Shown here piece after piece: positions 1 to 9,786 of a stretch of DNA of 64,000 nt (positions are counted from its first letter, which is position 1; every line of letters begins with the position of its first letter). Source of the DNA: an uncultured Candidatus Binatia bacterium (GTDB taxonomy: Bacteria; Desulfobacterota; Binatia; HRBIN30). The stretch spans positions 140,243 through 204,242 of the forward strand of contig CAZHQG010000002.1 of NCBI GenBank assembly GCA_964534275.1. The letters are read 5' to 3'. Below the pieces are notes generated by a model. It searched no databases, was not told the origin of the DNA, and saw only the letters and a program-made list of their open reading frames with translations. A program made the translations under genes and the position numbers.

Positions 1-507
1 GGCTCGCTGATCTCCGACCTCGTGTTGCGGCTTCATGCGGTGGATGCGGGCGAACACGCCGATTTTTTCGAGCGCCAACGTGCCGCACTGCTCGTGTACT
101 TGGAGTACCTGCGTGCCAATCCCACGTATGTTCGTCTGGCCGACGAGATCAAGCTTTACGCTCCTGATCTCTACCGCCGAGCGGTGGCGAGCTGGGTGGA
201 TCGTATGGCAGAGCGCATCCGCGCCGGTATCCGGGAAGGCAGCGTGCGTCCGATGAGTGAAGCCGAAATTACAGCGCAGGCTCACTTGCTGTTGGGGGCG
301 CGTCACTTCCTCGAGCAAATGTTGGAAACGAGTGACGGGCTCGACGATGCGGCCATCGTCGACGCTTACATCTCGCTGCTGCGCGACGGGCTGGCGCGGC
401 GCGAGAGGGGCGCCCGCTGGGTACGTGGTTCGGCGAAGGCCGCCACGCAGTCCAACCAACGGCAAGCAAGACGCCGCGCGCACGAAAAGAAAGGGGTGGG
501 TCGATGA
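1..507 (+). CDS. TetR-family transcriptional regulator, C-terminal ligand-binding part (5' end lies outside the window)
   Basis: Open frame runs from window edge to a stop at 505-507. The helical, TetR_C-like composition (LLVYLEYLRANP...HLLLGARHFLEQ) is typical of TetR effector domains. The stop overlaps the next ATG in an ATGA arrangement. Confidence 0.55.
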   Translation, partial: GSLISDLVLRLHAVDAGEHADFFERQRAALLVYLEYLRANPTYVRLADEIKLYAPDLYRRAVASWVDRMAERIRAGIREGSVRPMSEAEITAQAHLLLGARHFLEQMLETSDGLDDAAIVDAYISLLRDGLARRERGARWVRGSAKAATQSNQRQARRRAHEKKGVGR

Positions 508-1985
508 CTGCGAGCACTGGCGGTCGTTCTGCTCGTTCGGGAGAGCTTCGGTTCGTCATCATCGGGGCAGGAATGTCTGGGATCCTGAGCGCCATCAAGC
601 TGCGCGAAGCCGGCTTTCGTGACGTCGTGATTTACGAAAAGGCCGATCGACTTGGCGGCACGTGGCGCGACAACACCTACCCAGGGCTCACGTGCGACGT
701 ACCGTCGCACCTGTATTCGTACTCGTTTGCCTTGAATCCCGATTGGACCCATCGCTTTTCGCCTGGGCCGGAGATCCAGGCCTACTTCGAGAACGTGGCG
801 CGGAAGTTCGGCGTAGATGCGTTGATCCGGTACCGAAAAGAGGTCGTCCGGTGCGAGCACTCGAACGGCGGCTGGAAGCTCACGATGAGCGACGGCTCGC
901 AGGACGAGGCAGACTTCATCATTGCCGCCAGCGGCGTGCTCCACCACCCTGCATATCCGGATATTCCCGGACTCGATCGCTTTGGCGGCCCTGCGTTCCA
1001 CAGTGCACGCTGGGATCACTCCGTGCCCCTGTCGGGTCGCCGGGTTGGCGTGGTCGGAACAGGCTCGAGTGCCATCCAAATTGTCGGAGCCATTGTCGAT
1101 CAAGTGGCCGAGCTGCGGCTCTTTCAGCGGACGCCACAGTGGATCATGCCGATGAGCAATCCCCCGTACACCGAGGCCGAGAAACAGGAGTTTCGGGAGC
1201 ATCCAGAGCGGATCGTGCAGCTCCGCGAAGAGATCTCGCGCATGTTTGTCGACACGTTTGCCAACCACCTGGCGGACGTGAACTCCCCGCAACTGCAAGC
1301 GATTCACGCGGCGTGCGAGGCTCATCTAGAAAATAGCGTGCGCGACCCAGAACTGCGCGAGAAACTTCGTCCCAACTATCGCGCGGGCTGCAAACGGTTG
1401 ATCCTGTCCGAGAACTTTTACGATGCCATTCAGCGACCCAACGCAAAGTTGGTGACCGAGCCGATCGAGCGCGTCGAAGGGGCGGGCGTGCGCACCCGCG
1501 ACGGCGTTTTGCACGAGCTGGACGTACTGGTTTTGGCAACCGGATTTCGCGTCGATCGCTTCATCCGACCAACAGAGGTGATCGGCCGCGGCGGCGTACG
1601 GCTGGACGATGTTTGGAAAGACACCCCAGCCGCGTATCTTGCCATTTCGGTGCCCGATTTTCCGAACTTCTTCTTGCTGAACGGCCCGAATAGCCCGGTC
1701 GGGAACTTCTCGCTCATCGAAGTGGCGGAGTTGCAGTTCGCCTACATTTTGCAGCTCGTCGAGCTGGTACGTCGCGGCGTGTGCGCGGAACTGAGTGCGT
1801 CGCATGCAGCAATGCGGCGTTTCGATGCGGCGCGGAAACAGCAGGCGGCACGAACGATTTGGGCTAGTGGGTGCCGCAGCTGGTACCTGGACGGCGAGGG
1901 CGTACCCATCGCCTGGCCGTGGCCGTTCGACCGCTTCCGCGAAGAAATGTCCAGGCCGAACTTGGCTGACTTCGACCGGAGATAA
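504..1985 (+). CDS. Type I Baeyer-Villiger / flavin-containing monooxygenase (FAD/NADPH dependent)
   Basis: 493 aa. An N-terminal Rossmann motif IIGAGMSG and a second dinucleotide motif GVVGTGSSA are present. The BVMO fingerprint FxGxxxHxxxW(D/P) is seen as FGGPAFHSARWD. Confidence 0.85.
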   Translation: MTASTGGRSARSGELRFVIIGAGMSGILSAIKLREAGFRDVVIYEKADRLGGTWRDNTYPGLTCDVPSHLYSYSFALNPDWTHRFSPGPEIQAYFENVARKFGVDALIRYRKEVVRCEHSNGGWKLTMSDGSQDEADFIIAASGVLHHPAYPDIPGLDRFGGPAFHSARWDHSVPLSGRRVGVVGTGSSAIQIVGAIVDQVAELRLFQRTPQWIMPMSNPPYTEAEKQEFREHPERIVQLREEISRMFVDTFANHLADVNSPQLQAIHAACEAHLENSVRDPELREKLRPNYRAGCKRLILSENFYDAIQRPNAKLVTEPIERVEGAGVRTRDGVLHELDVLVLATGFRVDRFIRPTEVIGRGGVRLDDVWKDTPAAYLAISVPDFPNFFLLNGPNSPVGNFSLIEVAELQFAYILQLVELVRRGVCAELSASHAAMRRFDAARKQQAARTIWASGCRSWYLDGEGVPIAWPWPFDRFREEMSRPNLADFDRR

Positions 1986-1995
1986 AGGGGGAGCC

Positions 1996-2614
1996 ATGAA
2001 GCGCGAACACTGCTTGATCGAACGCGACGGCCATGGGCTGATCGTCACGCTGAACCGCCCCGAGGCAAAAACGCCCTGAGTGCGGGCATGCTAGCGGGGA
2101 TGTACCGCGCTTGGCGCCTGCTCGACGAGGAGGACGACTTGCGCATGGCGATCCTCACGGGGCAAGGCGATGTGTTCTGTGCTGGTGCCGACTTCAAGTC
2201 GATGGGTGCGGGAGAAATGGACGAAGAATTCATGAAGCTCATGTCCGAGATTCCTGATATCCATTGGCAGGCACTGCTTCGACACAACCGTCCGATGCAG
2301 CCAATCGTCGCGGCGGGGGAAGGTTCCGCGGTCGCGGGCGGCACCGAGACCCTGCTCGGCACCGACATTCGCGATGCGGCGGAGGAGGCCGTGTTCGAAA
2401 TCACCGAAGCGCGGAAGATTGCAGCCACGATTTGTGAAAACGCTCCACGTCGGTGCGCGCGCTCGTGCGGATGCTGCGCGAGGTGGGCGAAAGTTCCGGC
2501 GAGGCCCTTGCGAAAGAGCTCGAAGTCGGCAGCCCCATCTTCGGGACCCCCGACGCGCGCGAAGGCATGAAAGCGTTCGCGGAGAAGCGCAAACCCATCG
2601 ACAAGGACGGGTGA
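1996..2614 (+). pseudogene. Enoyl-CoA hydratase/isomerase (crotonase) disrupted by two +/-1 frameshifts
   Basis: Crotonase homology is split across three frames. Frame 1 (1996-2079) reads MKREHCLIERDGHGLIVTLNRPEAK. Frame 0 (2088-~2440) reads AILTGQGDVFCAGADFKSM...AGGTETLLGTDIR. Frame 2 (2441-2614) reads SVRALVRMLREVGESS...FGTPDAREGMKAFAEKRKPIDKDG*. The first shift is at the A5 homopolymer 2067-2071. The second is near 2441-2455. Confidence 0.6.
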
Positions 2615-2616
2615 CA

Positions 2617-4104
2617 ATGGCAGAGTTCCCGGCAAACGTCCCGGTGATTGTGGGCGTTGGTTTTCACCAAGAGCGCAACGAAGATCCCACTCAGTGCTCC
2701 GAGCCTTACCAGCTCATGGTGCAGGCAGCACGAGCGGCCGCTGCCGACGCAGGGTCGGAGGAGCTCCTGCGGCGCATCGAGTCGGTGTCGGTGCCGCGCG
2801 GGATGTGGCAATACCGGAATCCCGGTAGGCTCGTTGCCGAAGCACTTGGATGCTCGAGGGCAAAGAGCATCTTGTCGGACTTAGGAGTTCTGCAGCTCAC
2901 CCTGCTGAGCGAACTCTGTCAGTCGATTGCAGCAGGCGAACGTACGGTTGGCCTGGTCACGGGAGGGGAGGCCCAGTTTCGTGCCCTGCGGGCCATGATC
3001 ACGCAGCAGCGGGTGACGGATACTGAGCAGCCCGAGGAGACTCCAGCGCCGGATGTTCACCTTACCTCCTCCGACCCCTTTTGCAGCGATCTCGAGAGCC
3101 GGCGTGGTCTGAATCTGCCCGTGGAGTACTTTGCGATCATCGAATCGGCCTTGCGCTGTCACCAAGGCCTGAGCGTGGATGGGCACCGGGACCGTTTAGC
3201 TGCGCTGTACAGCTCGTTTAGCGAGGTCGCAGCCGGCAACCCGCACGCGTGGCGGCGCGAAATGGTAAGCCCCGAGGACATTCGCAATCCCTCCGCCAAG
3301 AATCCCATGCTGGCATTTCCCTACACGAAGAGACACTGCAGCCAGTGGAACGTAAACCGCGGGGTGGCCATTCTCGTTTGTTCGCTCCGCGTTGCCCAGG
3401 AACTTGGCCTCGACTCTTCGCGCTGGGTTTTCCCCGTTGTCACGGTCGAGTCGAAGCACGTAGTCGTGCTGGCTCAGAAAAGAACGCTGCATAGCCAGCC
3501 CGGAACGGTCCTGTGCGGACAGCGAGCCTTTGCTCTTGCAGGCATCACCCCTGCCGATCTGACCGCCGCAGAGCTTTACAGTTGCTTCCCGGCGGCAATT
3601 CAGTCGTTTGCGCTCGACCTCGGGCTGGATGGTGTCTGCCCCCTGACTGTCACTGGTTCCATGGCGTTTGCTGGGGGTCCGTACAACCATTTCAGCCTCG
3701 AGGGAGTGGCGAGAATGGTGGAGGTGCTCCGTGCTGGCGGTAGACCGCACCGGTTCGGGCTCGTCTCGAACTTGAGCGGCATCTTTGGAAAGCAAGCTTG
3801 CGTCTTACTTTCGGACGTCCCCAGGCCGGGTGGCTACGCGTACGAGGACGTCACCGAGGCGGTTGCCAAGATCGACCAACCTGTCCCGCTGAACGAGCAG
3901 TATACCGGGCCAGCGACCATCGTCGGCTACACGGTCGTGTTCCAACGGGACCATCCGTCACACGCGATCGCCATTTGCGATACGCCGGCTGGCGAGCGAA
4001 CGGTTGCGAAGAGCGAGGATGCGTTCTTGCTCGAAGCAATGATGCGCGAAGAGTTTTGCGGCCGCCCGGCCGAGATCTCGGCAGGCGGAGGCTTCCGATT
4101 GTAA
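2617..4104 (+). CDS. SCP-x/Ltp-type thiolase-like protein fused to a C-terminal OB-fold (DUF35-like) domain
   Basis: ATG at 2617 (MAEFPANVPVIVGVGF) follows the hydratase stop. The thiolase-like core is about 380 aa. The C-terminal ~80 aa (TGPATIVGYTVVF...AIAICDTPAGERTVAKSEDAFLLEAMMREE) resemble the DUF35 OB fold and lack the zinc ribbon. The upstream part of the listed 2374-4104 ORF is the out-of-frame hydratase 3' end. Confidence 0.75.
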   Translation: MAEFPANVPVIVGVGFHQERNEDPTQCSEPYQLMVQAARAAAADAGSEELLRRIESVSVPRGMWQYRNPGRLVAEALGCSRAKSILSDLGVLQLTLLSELCQSIAAGERTVGLVTGGEAQFRALRAMITQQRVTDTEQPEETPAPDVHLTSSDPFCSDLESRRGLNLPVEYFAIIESALRCHQGLSVDGHRDRLAALYSSFSEVAAGNPHAWRREMVSPEDIRNPSAKNPMLAFPYTKRHCSQWNVNRGVAILVCSLRVAQELGLDSSRWVFPVVTVESKHVVVLAQKRTLHSQPGTVLCGQRAFALAGITPADLTAAELYSCFPAAIQSFALDLGLDGVCPLTVTGSMAFAGGPYNHFSLEGVARMVEVLRAGGRPHRFGLVSNLSGIFGKQACVLLSDVPRPGGYAYEDVTEAVAKIDQPVPLNEQYTGPATIVGYTVVFQRDHPSHAIAICDTPAGERTVAKSEDAFLLEAMMREEFCGRPAEISAGGGFRL

Positions 4105-4371
4105 CGGCTCGAGGAGCTTTCCCAACACGGCGTCCGGGCTGCCGATTCCCGTGTACGCTCGATCTCGAATTCGCAGGCGCGTGGCGAAATCCAACCTGGC
4201 CGCCCCGCGAAGGTGCTGGGCAAAACTCGGACTGCCGCCGATGGCGTGTGTCTGTGCCGCTCGATGCACCTCCCAGGCAGCCCTGGGGCCTGCGGCTCGC
4301 GACAACGAACGGTTGGGAGAAAACCGTTTGACATGTTGCACGAAACTCTGTAGGGCCGCGACTGGAGGACT

Positions 4372-5412
4372 TTGGAAATGCACGAATGGGTGCGGCGGGG
4401 GGTGGGCACAGTAGCGGTGGTTTTGGCTATTGTTTCTTCGGCGTTTGCCACGCCACAGTCGCTGCCGCAGACGATCTTACCGGGGGTCGGCAGCACATCT
4501 TGGGAAATTCGCAATGATGGGGGCACGGACGGCGGGCCGTTTGCCGGGGTGTGTGACGGTTCCCCGGCATTTGGGTTCGATGACGCGACGTCTGCTTCCG
4601 GAGCCGGCGACGCGTACGACGGGGCCTGGAGCGTGTGGATCAACGGCAATCCCTTCGTCGCGCCAGGGGGGTTGGTGGATGTGACCGGCACGACGCTTCT
4701 GGCTGGCCCAGTAGCGATGTCGGGGTTGAATGTTTGGTTGCAGTATTTCTTTTCCACCACGCATCAGGCGGCAAGGATCCTCGTAATCCTGCAAAACCCC
4801 AGCCCAGTTGCGGCGAATGTCACCGTGCAAGTGCCGATCAATTTCGGCTCCGATTCAAATACGACGGTCGGGCACACTTCGTCTGGCGATACGACCGTGA
4901 CCACGGCTGACCGCTGGGTGGTGACTTCTGACGGGGGGCCGGGCGACCCGGTCAATACCACAGTCTTTTATGGACCAGGTTCTCCCGCGCTGGTCCCAAC
5001 AAGTTATACGCAGACGGTGTTCCACTGTGCTACTCGAGACGGTATCGGTGCGACATTCAACGTTTCGGTGCCGGGCTCGAGCGCCCGCGCGCTCCTGTTT
5101 TTTGCCGGCCTCGGCGATATCGCCGGTACGGGCAATTCGATTGCAGGAGCAATAGCGAACGCCACCCTGTTCGACTCGGTCACCAGCCTGGCCAATTCGA
5201 CAGACCTGCTCAGCGGTGTGACCGTTGGCACTTCTCAAAGCGCTTTAGTCCTGAATTGGGAAGGCTTGTCTGTGCAGTTGCCGCAGCAAGTCAGGACCGC
5301 AGCCGCCCCGCTGGTGAGCAACCCCCTACTGGTACTCTTTTGTGCGCTCATGCTGGCCGGGTTCGGCTGCTTGCAACTGCGCCGCGCGCGTGCCGGCGCG
5401 CCCATGTGCTGA
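4372..5412 (+). CDS. Secreted Gly/Thr/Ser/Asn/Val-rich cell-surface protein with C-terminal hydrophobic helix plus basic tail (sorting-signal-like)
   Basis: The N-terminal signal peptide is MEMHEWVRRGVGTVAVVLAIVSSAFA. The body is low-complexity and beta-rich. The C-terminus reads PLVSNPLLVLFCALMLAGFGCLQLRRARAGAPMC, a TM helix plus RRAR that resembles PEP-CTERM/exosortase-type tripartite signals without a canonical PEP motif. Confidence 0.55.
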   Translation: MEMHEWVRRGVGTVAVVLAIVSSAFATPQSLPQTILPGVGSTSWEIRNDGGTDGGPFAGVCDGSPAFGFDDATSASGAGDAYDGAWSVWINGNPFVAPGGLVDVTGTTLLAGPVAMSGLNVWLQYFFSTTHQAARILVILQNPSPVAANVTVQVPINFGSDSNTTVGHTSSGDTTVTTADRWVVTSDGGPGDPVNTTVFYGPGSPALVPTSYTQTVFHCATRDGIGATFNVSVPGSSARALLFFAGLGDIAGTGNSIAGAIANATLFDSVTSLANSTDLLSGVTVGTSQSALVLNWEGLSVQLPQQVRTAAAPLVSNPLLVLFCALMLAGFGCLQLRRARAGAPMC

Positions 5413-5609
5413 CGCATGGCCCTCTGTACGTCATCGTGGGTCCGGTCTCGCTAGCAGCTATCTCGAGAACCGGCGTCCCGGGTTCCACCGCTCGGTGCGA
5501 GCGGCACGAACGTTCTTGGATCGAATCGCTAACGCGCGGGTGCCAACGTGATCGGGGGCACAGAATCGCTGCGTCCATACACGCGTACGTTGTCAACGCG
5601 CTGGTCTGG

Positions 5610-5838: not shown

Positions 5839-6387
5839 ATGGTTTCTTTCCCAAAGCGCACTGCGGAACTGCCGTATCGATTGTGTGTCGGTGTTGCGGT
5901 GTTCCGCTCCGATGGCTGCGTGTGGATCGGTAAGCGGATTGCGGCAGCCGACGCCGAAGAAGGCATGGGCACCTGGTGGCAAATGCCTCAAGGTGGTCTC
6001 GACGAGGGCGAAAACCCGGAAGAGGCTGCACGTCGCGAACTGTGGGAAGAAACCTCGATGCGCTCGGTGAGGCTGCTTGGCGAGGTGCCCGGGTGGTTTG
6101 CGTACGACTTGCCGCCCGACTTGCAACGGATTGCGTGGGGCGGGCGTTATCGTGGCCAGAAGCAAAAATGGTTTGCCTTTCGCTTCGAGGGGCACGATTC
6201 AGAAATCGACGTGCATCGGCCCGGGGACGGTAAACACAAGCCGGAATTTGGCGAGTGGCGATGGGAGCAAGTGGAGCGGCTACCGGAACTCGTGGTCGGC
6301 TTCAAACGGCAGGTGTATGCGGCGCTCGTTCCCCACTTGCGACAGTTCGCCGAGCGGGCGCGCCAGCAGATCGAAGGAGCAACGTAA
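5839..6387 (+). CDS. rppH: RNA pyrophosphohydrolase-like NUDIX hydrolase
   Basis: The NUDIX box GGLDEGENPEEAARRELWEETS is present. The N-terminus YRLCVGVAVF... is RppH/NudH-like. Length is 182 aa. Confidence 0.8.
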   Translation: MVSFPKRTAELPYRLCVGVAVFRSDGCVWIGKRIAAADAEEGMGTWWQMPQGGLDEGENPEEAARRELWEETSMRSVRLLGEVPGWFAYDLPPDLQRIAWGGRYRGQKQKWFAFRFEGHDSEIDVHRPGDGKHKPEFGEWRWEQVERLPELVVGFKRQVYAALVPHLRQFAERARQQIEGAT

Positions 6388-6404: not shown

Positions 6405-6989
6405 CTAGGTTGACCGCGATGGTCCTCGGCCTCGGAGCTTGCGTCCGGAACCCGATCGCGTGGATCCCTCGCGCGGTTGGCGCTGCGAGGCAAGTTCTTG
6501 TCCTCCAGTGGAAGTCGTGCGTCCCGCTTGGCGGCGCTGGCATCGAGCGCAGATGCCGTAAAGCTCCATGCGGTGGCCGGTAAACAAAAACCCTTCGCGA
6601 GCGGCCACTTCGGCTTGTAACTGCTCGATGCGCTCTTCTTCGAATTCCACGATGGTGCCGCAGCGCACACAAATGAGATGGTCGTGGTGATGTCCTTCGG
6701 TGCTTTCGTAGCGCGCCTCGCCGTTGAGGAAGTGGCTTTCCGAAGCCAAACCGCACTCGGTCAGCAGCTTCATCGTGCGGTAAACGGTTGCGTAGCCGAT
6801 CCGGCGGTTGACCTTTTTCACTTCGCGGTACAGCTCGTCCACGCTGATGTGCCGCTTGGCGGCGAAAAAGACACGGGCGATGTCATCCCGTTGGGCAGTG
6901 GATTTTAAGCCGAGACGACGCAGGTGCTCCTTAAAAATACGGAAACTCTCTGCTGCAGGATCGGTTTTGGGCGCAGCAGGGCGCTCCAT
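6405..6989 (-). CDS. fur: Fur-family ferric/zinc uptake regulator with unusual Arg/Gly/Ser-rich C-terminal extension
   Basis: The winged-helix N-terminus and the HHHDHLICVRCG...CARCQ metal-site motifs are typical of Fur. About 45 extra low-complexity residues follow the last Cys pair before the stop. Confidence 0.85.
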   Translation of the reverse strand: MERPAAPKTDPAAESFRIFKEHLRRLGLKSTAQRDDIARVFFAAKRHISVDELYREVKKVNRRIGYATVYRTMKLLTECGLASESHFLNGEARYESTEGHHHDHLICVRCGTIVEFEEERIEQLQAEVAAREGFLFTGHRMELYGICARCQRRQAGRTTSTGGQELASQRQPREGSTRSGSGRKLRGRGPSRST

Positions 6990-7425: not shown

Positions 7426-9786
7426 ATGACCAGGGTTCTGGACGAAGCGCTCTTGCAGAGAATCGATGCGTACTGGAGGGCGGCGAATTACCTCACCGTC
7501 GGCCAAATTTATTTGCTCGACAACCCTTTGTTGCGGGAACCCTTGCGGCCCGAGCACATTAAACCTCGCCTCCTAGGCCATTGGGGCACTTCGCCTGGGC
7601 TCACGTTCATTTACACGCATCTGAATCGAGCAATCGTCGCTCACGACCTGAACATGATGTACGTCATCGGGCCTGGCCATGGGGGGCCGGCGATCATCGC
7701 CCACACGTATCTCGAGGGAACGTACAGCGAGTTGTACCCCGACGTTGCCCAAGACGAGGAAGGGCTGCGGCGCTTGTTCAAGCAGTTTTCTTTCCCGGGA
7801 GGGGTCCCGAGCCACGTCGCTCCGGAAGTACCAGGGTCCATCCACGAAGGCGGTGAACTGGGTTATTCCCTTGCGCACGCCTTTGGTGCCGCTTTCGACA
7901 ATCCCGACCTGATCGTGGCTTGTGTGGTAGGTGACGGCGAAGCGGAAACCGGCCCGCTGGCAACGAGCTGGCACTCGAACAAGTTCCTGAATCCTGTGTG
8001 CGACGGGGCCGTGTTGCCGATTTTGCATTTGAACGGGTACAAAATCGCCGGGCCCACGGTCTTAGCCCGAATCCCGCGCGAAGAGCTGGAGTCGCTCCTG
8101 CGCGGCTATGGATACGCGCCGCGCTTTGTCACAGGCTCGGATCCTCCCACGATGCACGAAGCGATGGCCCAAGCTCTAGAGTGGGCAATCGCGAGGATCC
8201 GAGAAATCCAAGAGCGTGCACGCGGCGAGGGGGACTCGGCACGGCCGATTTGGCCGATGATCGTGCTGGAAACCCCGAAGGGCTGGACCGGACCGAAGGC
8301 CGTCGACGGCAAACCGGTGGAAGGTTCGTTTCGCTCCCACCAAGTGCCCCTGTCGCGCGTGCGCGAAGACCCGGAACAGCTTCGCGCTCTGGAGGCTTGG
8401 TTGCGAAGCTACCGGCCTGAGGAGCTGTTCGACGACCGCGGGCGACTGCGGCCGGAGCTACGCGCCCTCGCCCCAAAAGGAGAACGGCGAATGAGCGCCA
8501 ACCCCCACGCCAACGGCGGGGTGCTGTTGCGCGACTTGCGTTTGCCAGACTTTCGCGAGTACGCCGTCCCCGTGCCGCAGCCCGGGGGCACGGTTGCAGA
8601 GGCCACGCGCGTACAAGGTGCATTCATCCGCGATGTGCTCCGGCTCAACGCCGAAGCGCGGAACTTTCGTGTGTTCAGTCCGGACGAAACCACGTCGAAT
8701 CGCTGGAACGACGTATTCGAAGTGACGAGCCGTTGCTCGGTTGCCGCCATCGAGCCGCATGACGAGGCGGTCGCACCCACAGGGCGCGTGATGGAAATGC
8801 TGAGCGAACACCAGTGCCAGGGATGGCTCGAGGGCTACTTGCTCACAGGCCGTCACGGCTTCTTCAACTGTTACGAGGCGTTCATCCACATCGTCGATTC
8901 CATGTTCAACCAGCACGCAAAGTGGCTCAAGGTTGCCCGCCACATTCCTTGGCGCAGACCCATTGCCGCGCTGAACTACTTGCTCACGTCACACGTGTGG
9001 CGGCAAGACCACAACGGCTTCACCCACCAAGATCCGGGCTTCCTCGACATCGTCGTCAACAAAAAGGCGGAACTGATTCGGGTGTACTTGCCGCCAGACG
9101 CCAACACGCTCTTGTACGTGACCGACAAGTGCCTGCGCAGCCGCGACTGCATCAACGTGATCGTTGCCGGCAAGCAACCAGCACCGCAGTGGTTCGATAT
9201 GGATGCCGCAATCAAGCACTGCTCTTCCGGAATCGGGATCCTCCCGTGGGCAAGCAACGACGAAGGGAGCGAGCCCGACGTCGTGCTTGCCTGCTGCGGC
9301 GACGTACCGACGCTTGAAACACTGGGCGCGGCTTGGCTCTTGCGCCGCTTTATGCCGGAACTCAAGGTGCGCGTGATCAACGTGGTGGACCTCATGACTC
9401 TGCAACCTCGCAGCGAGCACCCGCACGGGCTGACCGATGCGCAGTTCGACGTGCTGTTTACCACCAACAAGCCCATCATCTTTGCCTTCCACGGCTACCC
9501 CTGGCTGATTCATCGCCTGGCATACCGCCGCAGAAATCACCCGAATTTGCATGTGCGCGGCTACAAGGAGGAAGGCTCGACCACGACGCCCTTCGACATG
9601 TGCGTACGGAACGACCTCGACCGTTTCCACTTGGTGGAAGACGTCATCGATCGAGTGCCCTTCCTCGGAGCACGGAAAGCCTACGTAAAACAAGCGATTC
9701 GCGACAAGCTCGTCGAACACCGCGAGTACATCACGAAATACGGCGACGACTTGCCCGAAATTCGGGACTGGAAGTGGTCGGCTTAA
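7426..9786 (+). CDS. xfp: Xylulose-5-phosphate/fructose-6-phosphate phosphoketolase
   Basis: 786 aa with a TPP-dependent phosphoketolase signature ([20 protein letters not shown]...GDGEAETG). The RBS GGAGGTG lies 5 nt upstream of the ATG. Confidence 0.95.

Follow-up and report, generated by a model that had tools for sequence, protein, structure and literature searches.

The closest described systems to the locus analyzed here include three thiolase-like proteins, two of which are aldolases. Ltp2-ChsH2(DUF35) from Thermomonospora curvata (6OK1) is a steroid C17 side-chain aldolase, in which the DUF35 domain is provided in trans by ChsH2 together with a Cys4 zinc ribbon and the hydratase is the MaoC-type ChsH1-ChsH2. 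Sal-Shy(DUF35) from Comamonas testosteroni (9MYR) is a bile-acid aldolase that acts directly after an enoyl-CoA hydratase, also of the MaoC type, and this hydratase carries the separate zinc-finger DUF35 domain. In Sal, a Gly replaces the thiolase nucleophile and Tyr302 and Cys304 of a YDCY motif serve as catalytic base and acid, and Ltp2 has the equivalent Tyr294 plus a second Tyr (PMC12329534, 2025). The third system, TLP1 from Mycobacterium smegmatis (MsTLP1, PDB: 4EGV), is a monomer with a thiolase fold and a six-stranded C-terminal barrel, without thiolase activity and with no function assigned; YSCF was defined as the fingerprint of TLP1 in its structure paper of 2012 (PMC3406046). We describe here a TLP1-family protein from an uncultured Candidatus Binatia bacterium, encoded in a stretch of 64,000 nucleotides of contig CAZHQG010000002.1 (positions 140,243 to 204,242; hereafter the window), where it follows a TetR-family regulator, a type I Baeyer-Villiger monooxygenase (BVMO) and the remnant of a crotonase-type enoyl-CoA hydratase.

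Positions 1 to 4104 of the window hold these four genes, which are co-directional on the plus strand with nearly no spacers between them, the TetR stop codon (505-507) overlapping the BVMO ATG at 504. The initial annotation of this region had described a TetR gene followed by three co-directional genes, and this layout is confirmed, with 504 and 4104 being exact gene boundaries. The ancestral operon order, linked to TetR, is BVMO, EchA19-like enoyl-CoA hydratase and then TLP1. The reading that we propose, and for which we see about as much chance of being right as of being wrong, is that TLP1 would be a retro-aldolase acting on a 3-hydroxyacyl-CoA, and not a thiolytic enzyme, with the crotonase feeding it, its own OB domain replacing the DUF35 partner and the BVMO taking the ketone.

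The TLP1 protein and its putative active site

The C-terminus of the thiolase-like protein scores with the Pfam family TLP1_add_C (PF18313) at 36.7 bits, with a cutoff of 26.1, and the whole protein matches MsTLP1 with an E-value of 4e-44, or 4e-53 when a profile of 34 relatives is used. It belongs to TLP1, a family described before, and the domain fusion itself is not new. The initial annotation as an SCP-x-type thiolase-like protein was right about the thiolase-like character and the extra C-terminal domain but has to be replaced by the described family (PF18313, 4EGV). The window protein and MsTLP1 have the same full-length layout of two domains, a thiolase fold and a six-stranded C-terminal β-barrel, and they share the YSCF motif, a Gly loop in place of the nucleophilic Cys loop and GG-x in place of GHP. 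They differ in that the window protein has LSG where MsTLP1 has NGG, represents a separate subfamily, whose members come from Binatia, Myxococcota and marine Gammaproteobacteria, and lies in an operon with BVMO and crotonase genes, a setting that has not been described for MsTLP1. The family as a whole comprises 718 clusters (50% identity) at E < 1e-30 against the window protein; of the 150 best-scoring representatives listed, most are ~490 to 500 residues long. The exact window protein is encoded on contigs of up to 842 kb. In the literature searched, including the papers citing 4EGV, no activity is assigned to TLP1, and TLP1 is absent from the text of the paper on Sal (PMC12329534). After 4EGV, the nearest structural relatives of the thiolase domain are Pyrococcus thiolase, BbsB, Ltp2, PhlC and Sal, which are all thiolase-like proteins working with DUF35 partners.

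The loop at the position of the thiolase nucleophile reads DLGVLQ and contains no Cys. Through the alignment with 4EGV, residues Cys89, His348 and Cys378 of thiolase (Zoogloea numbering) correspond to Gly90/Val91, Gly354 and Leu386, the GHP motif being GGP and the CxG motif LSG; in 4EGV itself Gly102 takes the place of Cys89 (PMC3406046). Gly90 is kept in 133 of 134 TLP1 representatives, which are 31-46% identical to the window protein, and Val91 is variable. The Cys-His-Cys set of degradative thiolases, which the initial annotation had singled out as the residues to inspect, is lost from this protein. An ordinary degradative or biosynthetic thiolase is nevertheless what the databases suggest, as the JGI/NCBI cluster names read acetyl-CoA C-acetyltransferase and NCBIfam PRK08257 points the same way. 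Its score of 318 bits, however, falls below the cutoff of 757 bits, the nucleophilic Cys, the His of GHP and the Cys of CxG are all missing, and MsTLP1 did not catalyze the thiolase reaction when assayed (PMC3406046). A true thiolase is ruled out by the catalytic residues, and we attach next to no weight to acetyl-CoA acetyltransferase as the function of this protein.

The YSCFP motif (residues 321-325) aligns directly, over YSCF, to YDHF of Ltp2 (6OK1_A); it also matches HDCF in archaeal thiolases and in those of the SCP2 type. Its Tyr is present in 132 and its Cys in 131 of the 134 diverse representatives. The catalytic Tyr of YDHF in Ltp2 aligns to Tyr321, and the His of the same motif is a Cys in the window protein. 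The second catalytic residue of Ltp2, Tyr344, falls on the GGP segment (Gly354) as judged from motif position, where the window protein has no Tyr. Cys323 is found at the position of Cys304 in Sal and of the Cys in HDCF, a placement made by sequence alignment only. As in Sal, a thiolase fold having Gly for the nucleophilic Cys is found in TLP1, along with a Tyr and a Cys that would sit, as Y-x-C-[FY], at the HDCF position and an OB domain that is probably akin to that of DUF35. TLP1 thus appears to possess a Sal-type Tyr/Cys pair.

The initial annotation had called the C-terminal domain a DUF35-like OB fold. It is an OB fold, but Pfam scores it as TLP1_add_C and not as DUF35, and the zinc ribbon is missing: no segment corresponding to the DUF35 zinc ribbon (PF12172) is found, nor are there any CxxC pairs in the C-terminal 93 residues. 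The DUF35 OB family (PF01796) gave sub-threshold matches to 2 of 23 close relatives and, among 96 distant ones, to 6, the lowest E-value being 1.7e-4. Leaving aside the thiolase/ketoacyl-synthase superfamily, no other family was matched by more than two of these 96 TLP1 members. A hidden Markov model (HMM) search of the PDB with the profile of the C-terminal domain returned 4EGV and chance matches only, with no DUF35 chain, and a profile-profile comparison was therefore needed for the link to DUF35. We ran hhalign locally between eight annotated OB-fold/zinc-ribbon partners of thiolase-like genes from plasmids and a C-terminal TLP1 profile built from 132 sequences. The comparison gave probabilities of 82-86% (P-values of 6e-6 to 1e-5, score 34), as against scores of 11 for the reversed control and at most 13.4 for 60 column-shuffled controls, and the core of the TLP1 domain is matched only to the part of DUF35 after the zinc ribbon. 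The domain is thus no member of the DUF35 family in the Pfam sense, and this profile match points to a probable, remote kinship with the OB half of DUF35.

Genomic context and the crotonase partner

A scan of species-representative genomes gave 48 TLP1 loci. With further contigs taken from protein look-ups, the set came to 51 non-redundant loci, whose neighbors were scored by tblastn with family representatives over 7-kb flanks. An earlier neighbor census based on naive calling of open reading frames (ORFs) was dropped because of long antisense ORFs in GC-rich genomes. An EchA19-like crotonase lies within the TLP1 flanks in 22 of the 29 loci from Binatia, Myxococcota and other non-gammaproteobacterial lineages, mostly directly upstream, and the crotonase-TLP1 pair is frequently an isolated two-gene unit amid unrelated genes; in Gammaproteobacteria a crotonase is nearby in 6 of 22 loci. 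A Massilia plasmid has the overlapping genes ligase-TLP1-ECH-ECH, and in the β-valine (bva) cluster of Pseudomonas SBV1 the TLP1-like ORF11 overlaps the crotonase gene BvaB2 (PMC4619459). Natural fusions also occur, namely a single 784-residue TLP1-crotonase protein on a plasmid of Novosphingobium sp. EMRT-2 (L060, 6986-9340) and a metagenomic protein of 985 residues (P0249) in which a lipid-binding SRPBCC domain, TLP1 and a crotonase are joined and the Tyr and Cys are retained. Because of the adjacency across phyla and the gene fusions, there is strong evidence that TLP1 and the crotonase act in one pathway, and the coupling to an enoyl-CoA hydratase suggested in the initial annotation is backed by the same two observations. 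SDR-type dehydrogenases are found near TLP1 in just 3 of 57 loci. Downstream of the fusion gene of the Novosphingobium plasmid come genes for a CoA transferase and a TetR regulator, and the fusion protein carries the RefSeq name “enoyl-CoA hydratase-related protein”.

Oxygenases and other oxidative enzymes are further neighbors. A BVMO is present in 16 of the 51 loci (10/29 non-gammaproteobacterial, 6/22 gammaproteobacterial), at times directly abutting TLP1, and BVMO-TLP1 pairs without a crotonase between them are seen in L040, L042 and L044. In 10 of the 22 gammaproteobacterial loci an aldehyde dehydrogenase is encoded divergently upstream of TLP1, and the gene directly downstream encodes an acyl-CoA ligase, likewise in 10 of the 22; two P450 families are found in 7 and 6 and an esterase in 4 of these loci, and acyl-CoA dehydrogenase and GMC oxidoreductase also occur. 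This cluster, conserved around TLP1 in metagenome-assembled genomes of marine Pseudomonadales and Cellvibrionales (gammaproteobacterial loci among L015-L050), has the appearance of a catabolic island devoted to some hydrophobic substrate. We also noticed that distant TLP1 members with 42-45% identity (L058, 7145-9512; L057, 8001-10753) lie beside other oxygenases, a luciferase-like monooxygenase gene overlapping the TLP1 start in one and a convergent P450 in the other. Pairing with an oxygenase may be more widespread in the TLP1 family.

In the window itself, the crotonase is a pseudogene. The remnant matches ECH_1 in Pfam (E-value 2e-15) and PRK07799/EchA19 in NCBIfam, and with both frameshifts repaired it has 206 codons, as compared with 265 in intact orthologues. 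The first frameshift is common to the window and to contigs L001 (99% related to the window, with a syntenic locus) and L002, and L059, which encodes exactly the TLP1 protein of the window, is identical to the window at this site. The in-frame deletion of 57 residues, which removes the segment RGLFPL...ALAEAK of intact orthologues, has an identical junction in L001 and L002. These two lesions are genuine, being common to independently assembled contigs of other samples, and sequencing error as their cause is ruled out on the same ground. At the site of the second frameshift L001 and L002 have G and L059 has A, and the base is missing in the window only; this is the sole difference between the crotonase genes of L059 and the window, and it is either a further genuine lesion or an assembly error. 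The initial annotation as a frameshifted enoyl-CoA hydratase was correct on the crotonase identity and the frameshift, but it understated the damage of two frameshifts and a deletion. The decay is lineage-specific. In L003 and L004, with TLP1 proteins 89% identical to that of the window, ~100 nucleotides of the crotonase 3′ end are left within a spacer of 144 nucleotides, and lineages at or below 73% TLP1 identity have an intact crotonase of 265 residues at the same place. A search of the 64-kb window for a replacement found no second EchA19-like gene and no other β-oxidation gene.

Among near-identical conspecific copies the crotonase remnant has a dN/dS of 0.7-1.4, versus 0.08-0.12 for the flanking BVMO and TLP1 genes; for TLP1, as for the BVMO, the values stay within this range at three divergence depths (0.08-0.10 for the BVMO against relatives). 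Purifying selection on BVMO and TLP1 persists after the loss of the crotonase. These values, and the fact that both genes are intact, speak against the view that the operon in its entirety is decaying in this lineage, a relic in which every gene is non-functional. What can be said for that view is the crotonase pseudogene, the TetR gene truncated in L003/L004 and frameshifted in L059, and the frameshifts or internal deletions in BVMO, crotonase or TLP1 of L009, L047, L049, L053 and L056, although several of the damaged loci may stem from error-prone assemblies; overall we find it very improbable. As to the damage in these five loci, frameshifts are found in L049, L056, L009 and L047, and the TLP1 of L053 (7001-7784) lacks ~238 internal residues; the cluster could be dispensable and have decayed repeatedly, or some of the assemblies could contain indel errors.

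Intact orthologues of the window crotonase are closely related to EchA19 (Rv3516), the cholesterol side-chain hydratase of Mycobacterium tuberculosis. An intact orthologue matches the EchA19 structures 6WYI and 4F47 over the full length with an E-value of 2e-78 and keeps both catalytic glutamates. EchA19 has no known pairing with a TLP1 protein, and unlike EchA19 the window copy is dead. The hydratase partner is thus a crotonase of EchA19 type and not a MaoC-type ChsH1/ChsH2 hydratase. This kinship also bears on another possibility, that TLP1 is catalytic with some other thioester chemistry, such as decarboxylation of a malonyl-type CoA, C-acyl transfer as in PhlC or thioester hydrolysis, and that the crotonase is not a simple hydratase. 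Many reaction types are found within the crotonases, the crotonase beside ORF11, the TLP1-like protein of SBV1, acts as a CoA-dependent ammonia lyase and not as a hydratase (PMC4619459), and a weak malonyl-CoA decarboxylase activity has been recorded for trypanosomal TbSLP, which has a YDCF motif (PMC12329534). The authors of that work nevertheless propose that TbSLP is an aldolase, given the catalytic pair of Sal; the closeness of the crotonase partner to a true hydratase and its two glutamates argue likewise against such a chemistry, and no malonyl-CoA-forming carboxylase recurs in the TLP1 neighborhoods examined. We consider this possibility unlikely, but one to be kept in mind.

A non-catalytic TLP1, that is, an acyl-CoA or lipid binding protein or a scaffold aiding the crotonase or the oxygenase, would account for the absence of all canonical thiolase residues and for the lack of thiolase activity of MsTLP1 (PMC3406046); DUF35 proteins are scaffolds in related complexes (PMC12329534), and the fusion to SRPBCC in P0249 would also fit. 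Such a role is harder to reconcile with the near-invariance of YSCFP, Gly90, Glu118, Lys392 and Asn357 at 31-46% identity, a pattern typical of an active site more than of a surface for binding, and with a purifying selection that continues after the partner has been lost, and it appears rather improbable to us.

The monooxygenase, the regulator and flanking genes

The BVMO has the complete signature set of type I enzymes, namely the fingerprint FxGxxxHxxxW[P/D], the motif GGxWxxxx[F/Y]P[G/M]xxxD, two Rossmann motifs and the conserved Arg (Table 1), so that its initial assignment as a type I BVMO with the fingerprint stands. Its matches to the PDB entries of cyclohexanone, phenylacetone and steroid monooxygenases (CHMO, PAMO and STMO) have E-values of ~1e-69 in two aligned blocks, and the alignment with CHMO puts the motifs in register. 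The fingerprints of the known type I enzymes CHMO, PAMO, STMO and OTEMO are all shared, while the window protein is ~50 residues shorter than these and carries the JGI name CzcO-like. In the comparison with L003 the BVMO and the neighboring TLP1 are discordant, with a dS of 0.17 (97% amino acid identity) for the former and 0.60 (89%) for the latter, which suggests recombination or replacement of one gene.

The regulator enters the window with its 3′ part only, and this fragment alone gives a weak match to TetR_C_25. Its identity as a TetR gene derives from the intact orthologue in L001 (268 residues), which carries PF00440 (TetR_N) and is 97% identical to positions 1 to 504 by tblastn. In L059 the TetR gene lacks one T of a T-run (window positions 58 to 63; L059 position 447) and is called as a protein of 137 residues; in L003 and L004 the first ~63 residues are detectable and the rest is truncated. 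The regulator may be decaying alongside the crotonase.

Downstream of TLP1 lies an ORF of 346 residues, for which no match was found in searches of Pfam and NCBIfam and which is kept at the same position in L001, L002 and L059. The NUDIX hydrolase, Fur-family regulator and phosphoketolase genes that follow, annotated through the syntenic L001 locus, are of housekeeping type and have no relation to the operon. A promoter and terminator scan of positions 1 to 5500 gave counts at or under the expectation from shuffled sequence and hence no usable candidate.

Table 1. Features of the TLP1 locus and its flanks (window coordinates)
Feature	Position	Strand	Remarks
TetR-family regulator, 3′ part	1..507	+	start beyond the left window edge
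Type I BVMO, 493 aa	504..1985	+	Pfam Pyr_redox_3 and FMO-like
BVMO FAD motif GAGMSG	564-581	+	
BVMO second motif GGTWRDNTYPGLTCD	654-698	+	
BVMO fingerprint FGGPAFHSARWD	981-1016	+	
BVMO NADPH motif GTGSSA	1056-1073	+	
BVMO conserved Arg in CKR	1389-1397	+	
EchA19-like enoyl-CoA hydratase (crotonase) pseudogene	1996..2614	+	read in three frames
Frameshift 1	2067..2071	+	A5 run where A6 is needed (NRPEAKNAL); TGA stop at 2077-2079
In-frame deletion of 57 aa (...TEAR/KIAA...)	2406..2420	+	junction 2414/2415; global alignment with the L005 crotonase (ECH)
Frameshift 2	2449..2450	+	one base missing (ENAP-SVRAL)
TLP1-family thiolase-like protein, 495 aa	2617..4104	+	thiolase-fold domain ~aa 1-402
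DLGVLQ loop	2878..2895	+	position of the thiolase nucleophilic-Cys loop; aligned to 4EGV
YSCFP motif	3577..3591	+	aa 321-325; Tyr321 and Cys323, proposed catalytic pair
C-terminal OB-fold domain TLP1_add_C, ~90 aa	3823..4101	+	probable remote kin of the DUF35 OB half; no zinc ribbon
346-aa ORF	4372..5412	+	hydrophobic N-terminus; hydrophobic Arg-rich C-terminal tail
NUDIX hydrolase	5839..6387		Pfam annotation of the syntenic L001 locus
Fur-family regulator	6405..6989	-	Pfam annotation of the syntenic L001 locus
Phosphoketolase	7426..9786		Pfam annotation of the syntenic L001 locus

A possible hydrate-and-cleave reaction

Set beside the two aldolases, the window TLP1 has their thiolase fold without the nucleophilic Cys and a Tyr as the first residue at the position of the Y-D-[HC]-[FY] motif, and it lacks a separate zinc-ribbon DUF35 partner carried by a MaoC-type hydratase. 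It would work most like Sal and Ltp2, yet it differs from Sal, a dimer, in that the prototype of its family is monomeric, in its OB domain, which is fused in cis and has no ribbon, and in a hydratase of the crotonase type, with YSCF instead of YDCY. On these residues and domains, retro-aldolase chemistry of TLP1 is plausible. In the ancestral module, the crotonase would make the 3-hydroxyacyl-CoA that serves as the substrate of TLP1. Tyr321 of YSCF would act as the base and take the proton from the β-hydroxyl, and Cys323 would act as the acid and protonate the acyl-CoA enolate, as the Tyr302/Cys304 pair does in Sal, with the cis-fused OB domain standing in structurally for the separate DUF35 protein of Ltp2 and Sal. 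Cleavage would yield a short acyl-CoA together with an aldehyde or ketone.

If the β-carbon is substituted, the product would be a ketone, which is a natural substrate for a BVMO. From this we infer a link of TLP1 to the BVMO, which would handle the carbonyl product or a ketone precursor, the aldehyde dehydrogenase possibly doing so instead in the gammaproteobacterial clusters. One may speculate further that a β-substituted substrate would give a tertiary alcohol upon hydration, and that, since such an alcohol cannot be dehydrogenated, an aldolase would be used in place of a dehydrogenase and a thiolase, with a ketone-consuming BVMO attached.

Several points weigh against a retro-aldolase fed by its neighbor. 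The hydratase is dead in the window and nearly gone in L003 and L004, and TLP1 therefore cannot strictly depend on the adjacent crotonase. The equivalence to the residues of Sal comes from a sequence alignment through the HDCF/YDHF position, and the motif is Y-S-C-F and not Y-D-C-Y or Y-D-H-F, the Asp being replaced. Unlike Ltp2 and Sal, which are dimers, MsTLP1 is monomeric, and its C-terminal domain is mostly far from the putative active site; in addition, the sole biochemical result on a TLP1 protein is a negative one, for thiolysis (PMC3406046). Distant TLP1 members occupy other contexts, with a P450 or luciferase-like oxygenase as neighbor, and the aldehyde dehydrogenase, P450, GMC oxidoreductase and acyl-CoA ligase would also be expected in an ordinary cluster for alkane or lipid oxidation. 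As the hydratase in this genome is a decayed pseudogene, the route of hydration followed by retro-aldol cleavage that was initially suggested for this operon cannot run from the operon alone. In this organism, a hydratase might be supplied in trans, or the BVMO-TLP1 pair might act on an already hydroxylated substrate or otherwise independently of a hydratase.

Two leads from the literature were dropped. For the “Thl” aldolases of Mycolicibacterium neoaurum, which form a system of two genes, ThlA/ThlB, no connection with TLP1 is stated, and a paper on Ambrox degradation makes no relevant enzyme assignment.

A concrete assignment for TLP1 is offered by three lines of evidence, namely the likeness of YSCF to the Tyr/Cys pair of Sal, the extra domain as a probable remote relative of the DUF35 OB fold, and the adjacency or fusion to crotonases in several phyla. 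Extended to the family as a whole, the proposal would be that TLP1 proteins are monomeric retro-aldolases with a cis-fused OB domain of DUF35 type, which together with EchA19-like crotonases form a hydrate-and-cleave unit bypassing the dehydrogenase and thiolase steps of β-oxidation, and we put this forward only tentatively, as a generalization that may well fail. Such a unit, if real, would serve acyl-CoAs that cannot be oxidized at the β-carbon and would pass ketones or aldehydes to co-encoded BVMOs or aldehyde dehydrogenases. The window copy of the module is incomplete and is a cautionary case; L005, L054 and L055 keep intact crotonase-TLP1 pairs. The name “acetyl-CoA acetyltransferase” is propagated for TLP1 in databases, and many annotations would need correcting if the assignment is confirmed. 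In that case the aldolase principle of Ltp2 and Sal would reach beyond steroid side chains to a family widespread in soil and marine bacteria, including Binatia, Myxococcota, Halieaceae, Spongiibacteraceae and sphingomonads.

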